A stretch of DNA of 64,000 nucleotides, taken from positions 223,959-287,958 of the forward strand of contig JBFMHR010000004.1 in NCBI GenBank assembly GCA_040751795.1. The letters are read 5' to 3'. Shown here in pieces: positions 53,049 through 55,957 of this stretch. Each line of letters starts with the position of its first letter. The first letter of the stretch is position 1. Under the pieces are notes generated by a model. The model was not told where the DNA came from. It saw only the letters and a list, made by a program, of their open reading frames with translations, and searched no databases. The stretch comes from Thermoplasmatota archaeon. Lineage in GTDB: Archaea > Thermoplasmatota > Thermoplasmata > UBA10834. The position numbers and the translations under genes were made by a program.

Positions 53049-54413
53049 ATGAACAACAGCAAGAAGTGGAAGCTCAAGGGGCCCAAGATCGTGGTGGAGC
53101 CGCCAGGCCCCAAGTCGAAGAAGGTACTGGCTCGCAAGGAGAAGTTCGTCACCGACGGCATCCGGATCGGGCTGCCGACCGCCCTCGACATCGCCGAGGG
53201 GCCGTTCCTGAGGGACCTGGACGGCAACGTCTTCCTGGACTTCACCGTGGGCATAGGCGTCCACAACTGCGGCCACAGGCCGGAGGCCATGGTCAAGGCG
53301 TGCAAGGACCAGCTGGACAAGTTCATACACATCTGCGTGATGGTCTCGCCGTACGAGCCCTACATCAAGCTCGCCGAGGAGATGGCCAAGATCATGCCGG
53401 GCAAGCTGGAGAAGAGCATATTCCTCAACAGCGGGTCCGAGGCGATCGAGAACGCCCTCAAGATCGCGAGGTCGTACAACAAGAAGAAGTGGATTGTCTC
53501 GTACAAGACCTCGTTCCATGGCAGGACCTTCATGGACATATCCCTCACGGCCAAGGAGAAGCCCTACAGGGACGGGTTCCACCCGCTCATGCCCTATGTC
53601 CAGCACGTGGACTACGCCTACTGCTACAGGTGCCCCCTGGGCCTCGAGCACCCGGGCTGCGACCTGGCCTGCGCCGACACCATAAGGACCATCGTGGAGA
53701 CGGCCCCGCTCGCGGGGGACGTCTGCGCGCTGGTGATGGAGCCGGTCGAGGGCGAGGGAGGGTTCATCGACCCGCCGCCGGGCTACTGGGAGAAGGTGCG
53801 CAAGATCTGCGACGACAACGAGGTCGTCTTCATAGACGACGAGGTCCAGACGGGCTTCGGCAGGACCGGCAAGATGTTCGCGATACAGCACTGGGACGTC
53901 GAGCCGGACATCGTCGTCACGGGCAAGGGCCTCTCCCTGGGGATGCCCCTGGGCGGCGTCACGGGCAAGGAGAAGATCATGGCCTCCCCGCCGCCGGCGA
54001 GCCTCGGTGGCACATACGGCGGGAACCCAGTCTGCTGCGCCGGGGCGATAGAGTCCATCAAGATGACCAAGAAGCTGCTGCCCAACACGAAGATGATCAA
54101 CAAGGTCGAGAAGAAGCGCCTCACCGAGTGGAAGGAGAAGTACGAGGTCGTGGGCGACGTCAGGGGCCTCGGCGCGATGATGGGCATGGAGCTCGTCAAG
54201 ACCAAGGCGGGGAAGGAGCCGGCGTCCGACCTGGCGAGGGCCATACAGCTCAACTGCTTCAAGAAGGGGCTGTACATCCTCACGGCCGGCGCGTACGGGA
54301 ACGTGATAAGGCTGCACCCGCCGCTGACCATCGACCAGAAGCTCCTCAACAAGGGCCTCGACATACTCGAGTCGGCCCTCGCGGAGGAGTCGAAGAAGGC
54401 CGGCCTGGTCTAG
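53049..54413 (+). CDS. Class III PLP aminotransferase (GabT-like)
   Basis: DGNVFLDF, NSGSEAIENALK, FHGRT, EPVEGEGG, DEVQTGFGRTG, GKGL, GGTYGGNP, GNVIRL.PPL. Confidence 0.92.
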   Translation: MNNSKKWKLKGPKIVVEPPGPKSKKVLARKEKFVTDGIRIGLPTALDIAEGPFLRDLDGNVFLDFTVGIGVHNCGHRPEAMVKACKDQLDKFIHICVMVSPYEPYIKLAEEMAKIMPGKLEKSIFLNSGSEAIENALKIARSYNKKKWIVSYKTSFHGRTFMDISLTAKEKPYRDGFHPLMPYVQHVDYAYCYRCPLGLEHPGCDLACADTIRTIVETAPLAGDVCALVMEPVEGEGGFIDPPPGYWEKVRKICDDNEVVFIDDEVQTGFGRTGKMFAIQHWDVEPDIVVTGKGLSLGMPLGGVTGKEKIMASPPPASLGGTYGGNPVCCAGAIESIKMTKKLLPNTKMINKVEKKRLTEWKEKYEVVGDVRGLGAMMGMELVKTKAGKEPASDLARAIQLNCFKKGLYILTAGAYGNVIRLHPPLTIDQKLLNKGLDILESALAEESKKAGLV

Positions 54414-54433
54414 GCGAGCCGACCCCAAACCTC

Positions 54434-54451
54434 TATGTGAAGAGGCCCTCG
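54434..54451 (+). repeat. IS inverted repeat, downstream end
   Basis: TATGTGAAGAGGCCCTCG vs reverse complement of 55688-55707 TATGTAGAAGAGGTCCCTCG (2 indels). Confidence 0.75.
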
Positions 54452-54621
54452 CGCCTCTTCCAAATCACTTTCCTTCTTCTTTTCTCTTCTGCCTCCTATC
54501 AGCGATTCTCATCTCGTTCGCGGGTTGGGGAGTTTAGCGGACAAACCTCTATCCGCGGTCAGTGCCGCACTATGGCCGCTTCGTCCCTTGTCAAGGACTT
54601 GCCCCAATCCCCTTCACGCAC
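54440..54621 (-). ncRNA. Candidate bridge/seek RNA of the IS110 element
   Basis: ~185-nt non-coding end downstream of tnp with hairpins (GTCCTT..AGGGAC; GCGGAT..GTCCGC; TTGGGG..CCCCAA) and a 13-nt copy of the reconstructed target; exact ends unknown. Confidence 0.65.
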
Positions 54622-55662
54622 TCAGACGGTGCAGGTTTGACGGCCGGGGTTCGGTCCATGACTCTGATACGGTTGCTTCCTGACGAGCATCCAGTAGATG
54701 ATATGGACGAGCTTCCTCGCGGTCGCCGAGGCGGCTTTCTGCTTGCCCCTACGCCTCGCGATTCGCGCGTGGAATTGCGAGATGCGCGAATCCGGATGAC
54801 ATCTGACGTGGGAGTGGACCACCTCCGTGAGGACCCACCTTAGATAGGCGGACCCCTCCTTGCTCACCCCTCCGTAGTGGACGGAGGATGCTGACTGGCT
54901 CACAGTCGGCACGAGCCCCGAGTATGCAGACAGCTTCTCGGGGCTCGGGAACCTCGAGATGTCATCGATCTCGGCGTGGATTAGGAGGGCGGAGTAGAAC
55001 CCGATGCCCGGGATCGTGGCTATCAGCTGGGCATCGGGTCTTCTGTGGAACTCGTCCAGGAGTTGGGAGTTGAGGGCGTCTATCTGTGCCTGGACTCCCT
55101 CGAGGCAGCAGAGGCACGAGTCCACGGTGGGGATCTTGAGCGAGCGCATCCAGGCGGTGTGTTTCTGGGTGAATGGTTTGAGCATGCCATCTGGGCGCCG
55201 GACTCCTCGTCTGAGGAGTTCGGCGTGCATCCTGTTCTTGAGGCTTGTTGACTGGCGTACGAGATATGCGCGCTGTCTCACGAGCTGCCTGAGGTCGCGC
55301 ATATCCTTGGAGGGCACCCAGGAGCGGGGTATGAGGTCAGCCCTGAGGAGCTGGGCGAGGGTCTCGGCGTCGACCTTGTCGGTCTTGACCCTGGCCTCGG
55401 CGATGGCCCTGACCTTGAGCGGATGGGCCAGCACGGCCTCGAACCCTCGGTTCTCGATGCCCTCGTATATGAACTCCCAAATGCCCGTGGATTCAAGGAC
55501 GAACTTGGCGTTCTTGAATCCGTCGAGGAACTCGTCCAGTTCCTCCTGGGTGGACGAGAACCTCTCGTTGGAGATTACCCGTCCGTTGCGGTCGATGACA
55601 CAAGCTTGGCAGAATTCTTTATGTACGTCCAGGCCCACATATACCATGGTCTCTCGTCTCAT
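54622..55662 (-). CDS. IS110 family transposase/recombinase
   Basis: YVGLDVHK, VLESTG, KTDKVDA (DEDD RuvC-like), IPGIG, AEI.D..RF, Y.GLVP...QS, G..YLR..L, A.ARKL; SD GGTGA upstream. Confidence 0.95.
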   Translation of the reverse strand: MRRETMVYVGLDVHKEFCQACVIDRNGRVISNERFSSTQEELDEFLDGFKNAKFVLESTGIWEFIYEGIENRGFEAVLAHPLKVRAIAEARVKTDKVDAETLAQLLRADLIPRSWVPSKDMRDLRQLVRQRAYLVRQSTSLKNRMHAELLRRGVRRPDGMLKPFTQKHTAWMRSLKIPTVDSCLCCLEGVQAQIDALNSQLLDEFHRRPDAQLIATIPGIGFYSALLIHAEIDDISRFPSPEKLSAYSGLVPTVSQSASSVHYGGVSKEGSAYLRWVLTEVVHSHVRCHPDSRISQFHARIARRRGKQKAASATARKLVHIIYWMLVRKQPYQSHGPNPGRQTCTV

Positions 55663-55687
55663 CGTTGTTCACCACATTCGATATAGA

Positions 55688-55707
55688 CGAGGGACCTCTT
55701 CTACATA
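55688..55707 (-). repeat. IS inverted repeat, upstream end
   Basis: CGAGGGACCTCTTCTACATA, inverted relative to 54434-54451. Confidence 0.75.
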
Positions 55708-55759
55708 CCATCCCCTTATCCAAACCCCAACCGCCTTTTCGATCCATGAGAAATGGGAG

Positions 55760-55831
55760 AGCCACTGGAGGGAATCGAACCCTCGACCTACGCCTTACCA
55801 AGGCGTCGCTATACCTCTAAGCCACAGTGGC
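55760..55831 (-). tRNA. tRNA-Thr(GGT)
   Basis: Reverse complement GCCACTG...ACGCC-TTGGTAA-GGCGT...GGTTCGATTCC..CAGTGGC-T. Confidence 0.95.
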
Positions 55832-55957
55832 ACGGTCCCGGCCGCAAGTCATCTTGACATGCCTATTAAAAGGTTGTTGACCTCCCGTGGGCGCCGGGGC
55901 CGCCCCGCCAGGCTAGTCGCATCATTTATTACCGTACCTGGGCATCAGTTCCACGCC

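Follow-up and report, generated by a model that had tools for sequence, protein, structure and literature searches.

The DNA analysed here, hereafter the window, is a 64,000-nt stretch of contig JBFMHR010000004.1 of a Thermoplasmatota archaeon (assembly GCA_040751795.1, positions 223,959 to 287,958 of the forward strand). It contains a 1.28-kb insertion sequence, with a class-III aminotransferase gene on its left, a tRNA-Thr gene on its right and a recombinase gene on the minus strand that is followed by a 190-nt non-coding stretch (Table 1). An earlier reading made from the letters alone, referred to below as the sequence-only reading, had called this an IS110/IS1111-type element whose downstream non-coding end encodes a guide RNA, and had taken a 13-mer in that end, CAAACCTCTATCC, for a contiguous guide copying the whole target site across the crossover. 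The family assignment holds, and covariation with the flanks supports a guide RNA encoded in this end. The 13-mer is present exactly where it was reported, and the junction strings quoted with it are correct. Judged by the same covariation, the real target guides are two other RNA segments, which lie ~60–90 bases from the 13-mer and are split left and right on opposite strands. We regard the element, with a probability of about 0.8, as an IS1111-type insertion sequence of ordinary architecture that belongs to the IS110 family and is hosted by an archaeon of the Thermoplasmata (Methanomassiliicoccales-like).

The recombinase has both domains of the IS110 family, the N-terminal RuvC-like DEDD domain (PF01548, E = 2.5e-28, 99.2 bits) and the C-terminal Tnp domain (PF02371, E = 2.8e-22, 79.3 bits), each scoring above its curated cut-off. 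It matches the IS621 transposase (8wt6) at E 8.3e-17, and in this alignment D12, E57, D95, D98 and S257 fall on D11, E60, D102, D105 and S241, the catalytic residues named in PMC11208158 (the offset in residue numbering between 8wt6 and PMC11208158 was derived here). In other words, the DEDD tetrad and the nucleophilic serine of the family are both kept. Insertion is site-specific, with duplication limited to a shared core dinucleotide. The hallmarks of the IS1111 group are found as well. The non-coding side downstream of the gene (190 nt, 54432–54621) is longer than the upstream one (49 nt, 55663–55711), and the ends carry the subterminal inverted repeats expected of the group (7–17 bp), with a gapless 10-nt core (54439–54448 and 55692–55701) that is 90% complementary; by eye the repeats reach ~18 nt with one indel, and they are kept in homologues. 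Like that of IS1111-group elements, the RNA is encoded downstream of the gene; IS621-type elements encode theirs in the upstream (left) end. At the transposase-distal end (54437–54461) the inverted repeat and its upstream complement form a hairpin, which is followed by a T run in several homologues and looks terminator-like.

Table 1. Features of the insertion sequence and its surroundings in window coordinates (tnp, transposase; LE and RE, left and right end of the element).
Feature	Position	Strand	Basis
Class-III aminotransferase, left flank (locus A)	53049–54413	+	PF00202 at 4e-110
Core CC (GG in transposase orientation), tnp-distal (RE) junction	54430–54431		Single in unoccupied sites, on both sides of the element
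Insertion sequence body, 1280 bp (1282 bp with one 2-bp core copy)	54432–55711	-	Unoccupied sites
Subterminal inverted repeat, tnp-distal copy, begins 2 nt from end; hairpin possible with 54452–54461	54434–54451		Read from sequence
Bridge/seekRNA region, overlaps last ~35 nt of recombinase gene	54527–54656	-	Covariance model R1 match
13-mer CAAACCTCTATCC, RNA GG-AUAGA-GG-UUUG, 3′ side of second loop	54542–54554	-	Sequence and homologue alignment
Inner hairpin of donor loop, GCGG/CCGC	54555–54568	-	99% paired, 4 + 3 double changes
Candidate right-donor guide (tentative), RNA CCAU, 5′ side of donor loop	54572–54575	-	Tentative
Target loop framed by helices P1 and P2	54602–54649	-	Compensatory changes
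Left-target guide, RNA GAAGG + GG, 3′ side of target loop	54609–54615	-	Tracks left flank
DEDD/Ser recombinase (transposase), 346 aa	54622–55662	-	Pfam domains and IS621 alignment
Right-target guide, RNA CAAA + CC, 5′ side of target loop	54634–54639	-	Tracks right flank
Subterminal inverted repeat, tnp-proximal copy, begins 4 nt from end	55688–55707		Read from sequence
Core CC, tnp-proximal (LE) junction	55712–55713		Unoccupied sites
tRNA-Thr (GGT), right flank (locus B)	55759–55831	-	tRNA call

Element ends and unoccupied sites

The ends of the element were set with unoccupied sites from five related genomes and from the contigs of a public sequencing run (X1), which carry both unoccupied sites at higher identity than the relatives do. 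At locus A, an X1 contig aligns to 54200–54431 with 12 differing letters over 232 nt and then continues with CCTTCGCCAAACC, the other flank; at locus B, the left flank in an X1 contig ends in GGACCGCAAA and is followed by an alignment that starts at 55712. In four same-genus genomes the aminotransferase gene is followed by CAAAC-ACCTTCC or GAAAC-CCCTTCC and then by the flank that is found at the end of contig C1 in the present genome. In the fifth genome the tRNA-Thr flank is preceded by the sequence found at the start of contig C45. When the two flanks are aligned separately to the relatives, the left one, with the core at its end, and the right one, with the core at its start, abut with an overlap of 1–2 nt in all five (four at locus A and one at locus B). 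Throughout these sites CAAAC(C) runs directly into (C)CCTT, with no CTCTAT between them. The target site is CAAA-CC-CCTT(C) on the plus strand, TCTAT is the end of the element, and the CCCCTT at the right is native. Because of these unoccupied sites, in the X1 contigs as well as in the five relatives, we place the element between two copies of a CC core. The sequence-only reading had rebuilt CAAACCTCTATCC as the empty site and had itself named a different empty site as grounds for giving up its model; a different one, without CTCTAT, is what the X1 contigs and the five relatives carry.

The same genome holds further copies of the element, and four contig ends stop inside them. In all three copies with a left junction, CAAACCTCTAT is joined to GTGAAG, and the three right junctions read CCCCT followed by TATCC (the window copy), TCCTGG or TCGCC. 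Since the right junctions differ while the left junctions agree, TAT, present in only one of the three right junctions, is not the duplicated core for which it had been taken, and part of CAAACCTCTAT is element-derived. Placing CAAACCTCTAT entirely within the element was tried and rejected, CAAAC being native flank both in the relatives and in the X1 contig. What survives of the identity claimed between junction and internal motif is this 11-nt CAAACCTCTAT, common to the motif and to all three left junctions; it does not extend to a full 13-mer empty site.

The window copy is bordered on its left by the left flank of locus A and on its right by the right flank of locus B. In the four relatives and in one run contig, the sequence downstream of the aminotransferase gene is the flank at the end of C1 and not the tRNA flank, and the native left partner of the tRNA-Thr flank is the one at the start of C45. 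This mismatch, seen at window 54426–54431 and 55712–55730, arose either when two copies recombined or when the assembly was wrongly joined across the 1.28-kb repeat. The partner flanks that match those of the window copy lie at the ends of C1 and C45 (L003 and L005). For the third copy, the left flank at the end of C23 is assumed to pair with the right flank at the start of C34; no unoccupied site was found for it in the relatives, which match only from 65–237 nt away from the junction, at 66–69% identity. This copy (L004; G000:C23, ~352598–353469, G000 being the present genome) lies directly downstream of a class-III aminotransferase paralogue with 75% DNA identity to the window gene.

In transposase orientation the target is the 11-bp GAAGG-GG-TTTG (GAAGGGGTTTG), of which the genome has 5 unoccupied occurrences where 0.3–0.8 are expected; the 10-mer AAGGGGTTTG occurs 18 times against 0.5–2.5 expected. 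With expectations drawn from composition or Markov models, the excess is roughly 7- to 37-fold. Unoccupied motifs stand, for example, at C12:146127, C1:93365 and C1:159724. The target thus appears to be a repeated, apparently intergenic motif to which the element homes, as is the case for many IS110-family elements.

The ends recur in homologous elements, in which CC-TCTATG and ACCAT-CC are common and the adjacent bases variable; among the aligned left junctions CC-TC..TG is found in 11 of 11, and the preceding 4 nt differ. Read in transposase orientation, every element parsed has ATAGA-core-flank at its transposase-distal end, and the transposase-proximal end is flank-core-ATG(G/T)NATG in all classes but one, which has ATTGG. 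The junction core is GG in 57 of 61 events and AG in 3, with AG occupying all guide positions of L045, L047 and L054. Circular intermediates of the IS1111 group have abutted ends that form a junction promoter; no public sequencing run contained half or more of the words (best 0.15), and their contigs gave no joints, no circle junctions and no starts or ends of the RNA.

Target guides that follow the flanks

For the covariation analysis, the copies in relatives were combined with 33 loci from species genomes and 80 metagenome loci, in which 95 RNA anchors were parsed. A right junction was present for 68 of the 95; loci without a parsable junction were excluded, and L012 and L019 were left out of the statistics as duplicates of L036 and L035. 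The records related to the element come from metagenome-assembled genomes (MAGs) of Thermoplasmata/Methanomassiliicoccales. A covariance model, R1, was built from the alignment of 44 non-redundant homologous RNAs; its match in this genome (G000:C34:278485–278614) is the RNA region of the window, and the RNA was found in 14 of 151 sampled genomes of the class, that is, in 7 of 66 genera.

Two segments of this RNA change together with the insertion sites. The first lies immediately 5′ of a small hairpin and is the reverse complement of the core and right flank, so that the right-target guide of the window is complementary to the top strand of core and right target. Examples from other classes are CAATGCC with the flank CATTG, GAAACC with TTTC, CTTTTTCT with AG-AAAAAG and TTTCCTCC with AGGAAAG. 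The second, just 5′ of ATTGGGG, repeats the left flank and core (CATAG, CCTAT, TAAGA, GAATG, TAAAAA-AG and others), and in the window its bases are those of the top strand across left target and core. Directly after it, all 44 aligned homologues have AU (54607–54608), the dinucleotide with which the element begins. Matching guides are found in at least five different target classes. Over 64 distinct events, the mean longest match between right guide and right flank is 6.92 nt for cognate and 4.32 nt for non-cognate pairs; over 51 distinct events, the mean suffix match between left guide and left flank is 5.98 nt against 2.83 nt, and 0 of 2000 shuffles reach the cognate value in either case. 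Counted position by position, left guide and flank have the same base in 45, 48, 48, 48 and 35 of 51 events from −1 to −5, agreement falling sharply to 7 of 51 at −6, and the right guide forms Watson–Crick pairs in 61, 55 and 50 of 64 events at +3, +4 and +5, with 3–4 kinds of pair at these positions. The sequence-only reading had proposed covariation across homologues as a check on the 13-mer; the bases that extend it beyond the core do not follow the flank base for base, and 54634–54639 and 54609–54615 do covary with the flanks.

In the window copy, 54537–54548 and 54633–54644 are 83% complementary over 12 nt because both carry the core and right target, and pairing within the RNA is possible there. 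Classes with other targets are without complementarity between the right-target guide and the 13-mer region.

The two target guides face each other across an internal loop. It is framed by helix P1 (54644–54649 with 54602–54607), in which 97% is paired and one pair shows 9 double changes, and by an inner hairpin, P2 (54629–54633 with 54617–54621), which is 92% paired with 15 + 15 double changes (30 double-change cells) and holds the recombinase stop codon (54622–54624) in its loop. The donor loop has an inner hairpin of its own and is also closed by an invariant GGACG/UGUCC helix (alignment positions 76–80/120–124) that is 99% paired. The structure as a whole is 85–97% paired, compared with 17–55% for controls with slid partners. 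An outer donor-loop helix GCGGCC/GUCCGC was rejected, being only 63% paired; the invariant helix fits better. As for the GCGGAU/GUCCGC hairpin on which the sequence-only reading had centred the 13-mer, it does form in the window copy, but shows no covariation in the 44 homologues, has its central G-C unpaired in 32 of them and competes with a helix that has compensatory changes.

The 13-mer and the proposed donor loop

What, then, is the 13-mer? Its AUAGA and GG (54546–54552) equal the last 5 nt of the element at the transposase-distal end plus the core; the following UU (54544–54545) lies in the loop, and the final UG (54542–54543) belongs to the invariant helix. ATAGA and the core are invariant in every copy of the motif parsed, and the core of the motif is that of the junction in 60 of 61 events (57 GG and 3 AG). 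The 4-nt extension after the core is UUUG, CUUG, CAUG, UAUG, UCUG, UGUG or CCUG. Its mean identity to the right flank is 1.77 of 4 for cognate and 1.59 of 4 for non-cognate pairs, with no base-for-base tracking. The 11-nt identity with the left junction is therefore accounted for by 7 nt of donor guide and core, 2 loop nt that equal the target of this lineage by chance and 2 helix nt. In position and strand AUAGA and the core mirror the left-target guide, and by this analogy we read them as a putative left-donor guide. The 13-mer was thus rightly placed in a guide loop, and it is neither a target copy nor a target guide. On the other side of the donor loop, CCAU would be the right-donor guide, a tentative assignment: it pairs with ATGG, the first 4 nt of the transposase-proximal end in most variants, and the ATTGG-end class has CCAA. 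Of the two-loop layout of bridge RNAs, the target-loop guides and the left-donor guide with its core are recognised, together with only this tentative candidate for the right-donor guide.

From the boundaries, the flank–guide covariation and the helices, all obtained in silico, we infer that the RNA is produced, is bound by the recombinase and guides the reaction. A bridge/seekRNA of ~125 nt would begin inside the last codons of the recombinase gene and extend into the downstream non-coding end. The 5′ side of its target loop (CAAA + CC) would pair with the top strand of the core and right target, and the 3′ side (GAAGG + GG) with the bottom strand of the left target and core, specifying a site that reads GAAGG, GG, TTTG from 5′ to 3′ in transposase orientation and CAAA, CC, CCTTC on the plus strand of the window. 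In the donor loop, AUAGA + GG of the 13-mer would pair on the 3′ side with the bottom strand of the transposase-distal end and core, and CCAU on the 5′ side would probably pair with the start of the other end. The circularised element would then be inserted, without duplication, by recombination at the shared GG/CC core.

Several observations speak against this reading. In a fixed register, the right guide pairs at +1 and +2 in only 39 and 43 of 64 events, low counts that arise because some classes have a core segment 1 nt shorter. Five of the 51 left junctions match the 2 core bases only, some of them in composite or hybrid elements such as L048, L015, L114 and L115; the homologues are also related to one another, so that the shuffle counts overstate their independence. 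The ATAGA donor bases are invariant, and the donor guide is argued there from analogy and from the core covariation of three AG elements of few lineages. The right-donor candidate spans only 4–7 nt without core pairing, and the ATGTT-end class keeps CCAU, uncompensated. A hairpin at alignment positions 61–67/73–79, 81% paired and with some covariation, competes with the GGACG/UGUCC helix for the same GGAC. The single sequence folds no more stably than its shuffles (z = +0.65; 147 of 200 shuffles at least as good), and Rfam, searched over 54300–55900 with E values up to 10 admitted, gives only the tRNA-Thr and chance-level matches, so that none of its families covers the non-coding end. Contigs of an RNA library (X19, metatranscriptome) cover 54565–54610; they belong to a related element and could be DNA.

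Among the composite or hybrid elements, L015, L114 and L115 have the transposase-proximal end and flank of one target class and the guides of another, and L048 has, near 2400, a second related end inserted within its transposase-distal end. The X19 contigs have a word depth of 130–150 over the RNA region and of 24.7 for the gene-body contig, a hint only, given possible DNA carry-over and because contig depth cannot rank the parts.

Besides the donor guide, the 13-mer might contain a working handshake: within the product junction, UU(UG) would base-pair with the start of the right target and stabilise insertion, the part that the 2-nt handshake guides play in IS621. At all three junctions of the lineage the extension and the target agree (TTTG), all 13 events with a TTTG extension have targets starting in TTT, and a first extension base U goes with a first target base T in 21 of 23 events; the left-target guide, moreover, likewise runs on into AU, the first 2 nt of the element. 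Yet extensions starting with C match the first target base in only 9 of 38 events, and the second base matches in 19 of 61, a figure that includes all 13 TTTG cases. Classes targeting AGGA, TCTT, AAAA or CATT retain CUUG, CAUG or UGUG, and the last two bases of the extension are paired in the invariant helix. An association over the 4 nt is present overall, though weak (11 of 2000 shuffles), and relatedness of the sequences inflates it. We consider a functional handshake unlikely. Equally speculative is a bolder proposal, that both bottom-strand guides are contiguous copies of the product junctions (left target, core and first 2 nt of the element; element end, core and first 2–4 nt of the right target), the RNA being primed to stabilise insertion on the bottom strand, the 13-mer being an unusually long 4-nt handshake and the guide DNA itself a recombination half-site. 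If this doubtful proposal were true, junction-copy guides acting as half-sites would spawn RNA-only mini-elements without transposase as well as duplicated ends.

A role of the motif mainly as DNA, that is, as an internal copy of the element end serving as pseudo-end or recombinase half-site instead of or besides an RNA guide, is less probable again. In L023 (G016:C17) and L044 (2198–2460), which are unrelated records, the transposase-distal end and core are directly followed by the sequence that usually follows the motif, an arrangement expected from recombination between end and motif, by which the segment from motif to end is in effect duplicated. In L021 (G002:C37:2500–3600), a derivative without transposase gene, the core of the left-target guide is the exact starting point (flank GGAAAG-GG-ATTGGGG), and the other end is a normal transposase-distal one. 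However, such cases look like rare by-products, 2 of ~70 right junctions, and masked bases after L044 leave room for an assembly artefact; the motif itself is part of an internal loop whose bounding helices covary or are invariant, a counterpart of the target loop. L021 is also the product expected had the guide-coding DNA acted as a pseudo-end, and copies of a downstream RNA module without the transposase gene are reportedly known from the bacterial ISPpu9/Ssr9, which we mention as a lead only.

That the 13-mer is a contiguous single-strand guide for the whole target CAAACCTCTATCC, with a TAT core and a new architecture, can be dismissed as highly improbable: the exact 13-mer and the TAT on both sides of the window copy suggest it, but the unoccupied sites lack CTCTAT, two of three right junctions lack TAT, the flanks of the window copy come from different loci, TCTATG is kept at the ends of elements in unrelated flanks, and the split guides elsewhere in the RNA covary with the flanks.

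Place among IS110-family systems

The preferred reading, a split-guide element of the IS1111 type, agrees with the IS1111 seekRNA elements ISEc11, ISKpn4 and ISPa11 (Siddiquee et al. 2024, PMC11187229). These likewise have a long downstream non-coding region, subterminal inverted repeats, a transposase within 330–350 aa, site-specific insertion without duplication, and two short target matches on opposite strands that overlap at the crossover. In their seekRNAs the top-strand target match lies 5′ of the bottom-strand match (PMC11187229), and the same order and overlap are found in the present RNA. The guide order, the subterminal inverted repeats, the downstream non-coding region, the protein length and the DEDD and serine recombinase all fit (PMC11187229, PMC11208160), and for these reasons the element is assigned to the known IS1111 seekRNA/bridge-RNA design, of which it is an archaeal representative with split guides; the guide architecture itself is not new. 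The different architecture suggested by the sequence-only reading arose because the element boundaries were mis-set and the copy at hand had non-matching flanks. Differences from the elements of PMC11187229 remain: the present host is archaeal (Thermoplasmata MAGs), the RNA begins within the transposase reading frame, the C-terminal motif read by eye from the translation is GL-P----SA where theirs is S(T)G, and the RNA has a second, donor-type loop, whereas their seekRNA is described, in the text available, via its target matches.

With IS621 and its bridge RNA (Durrant et al. 2024, PMC11208160; Hiraizumi et al. 2024, PMC11208158) the element shares a homologous recombinase with DEDD and serine residues, a 2-nt core and two internal loops, each with a left-half bottom-strand and a right-half top-strand guide, the right-donor guide being tentative here. 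Extensions of 2 nt that match the partner DNA are another point of likeness (PMC11208158, PMC13626964). Unlike in IS621, the RNA lies in the transposase-distal end and not upstream, the guide order within each loop is reversed, the core is GG instead of CT, long inverted repeats sit subterminally, and the right-donor candidate shows no core pairing. Bridge RNAs have been predicted in the right end of 93% of the IS1111 elements in ISfinder, and donor-binding bases in more complex loops have been noted for IS1111 elements (PMC11208160).

Among named insertion sequences, the closest one found is ISHvo10 from Haloferax volcanii pHV4, with 35.3% identity over 98% of the protein. It too is an archaeal IS110-family element, likened here by protein, at low identity, and by description; it is listed among the diverged relatives of the IS1111 cluster, with long non-coding regions on both sides (PMC11187229). 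Archaeal IS110 recombinases are not new, 662 having been counted (10.1101/2024.06.21.599552). Our literature search found no description of a Thermoplasmata IS1111-type guide RNA; the supplementary tables of predicted bridge RNAs of Durrant et al., outside that search, may list archaeal IS1111 members.

The finding leaves the known mechanism unchanged. What it provides is a worked case of an RNA-guided IS1111-type recombinase from an archaeon, for which the exact ends, the core, the 11-bp target, the two target guides and a putative donor guide could all be read from natural variation alone. The ~60 distinct natural insertions, spread over at least five target classes, amount to a retargeting series already at hand for working out the guide rules in this less-studied IS1111 branch, and the series could seed tools for Methanomassiliicoccales-like archaea.

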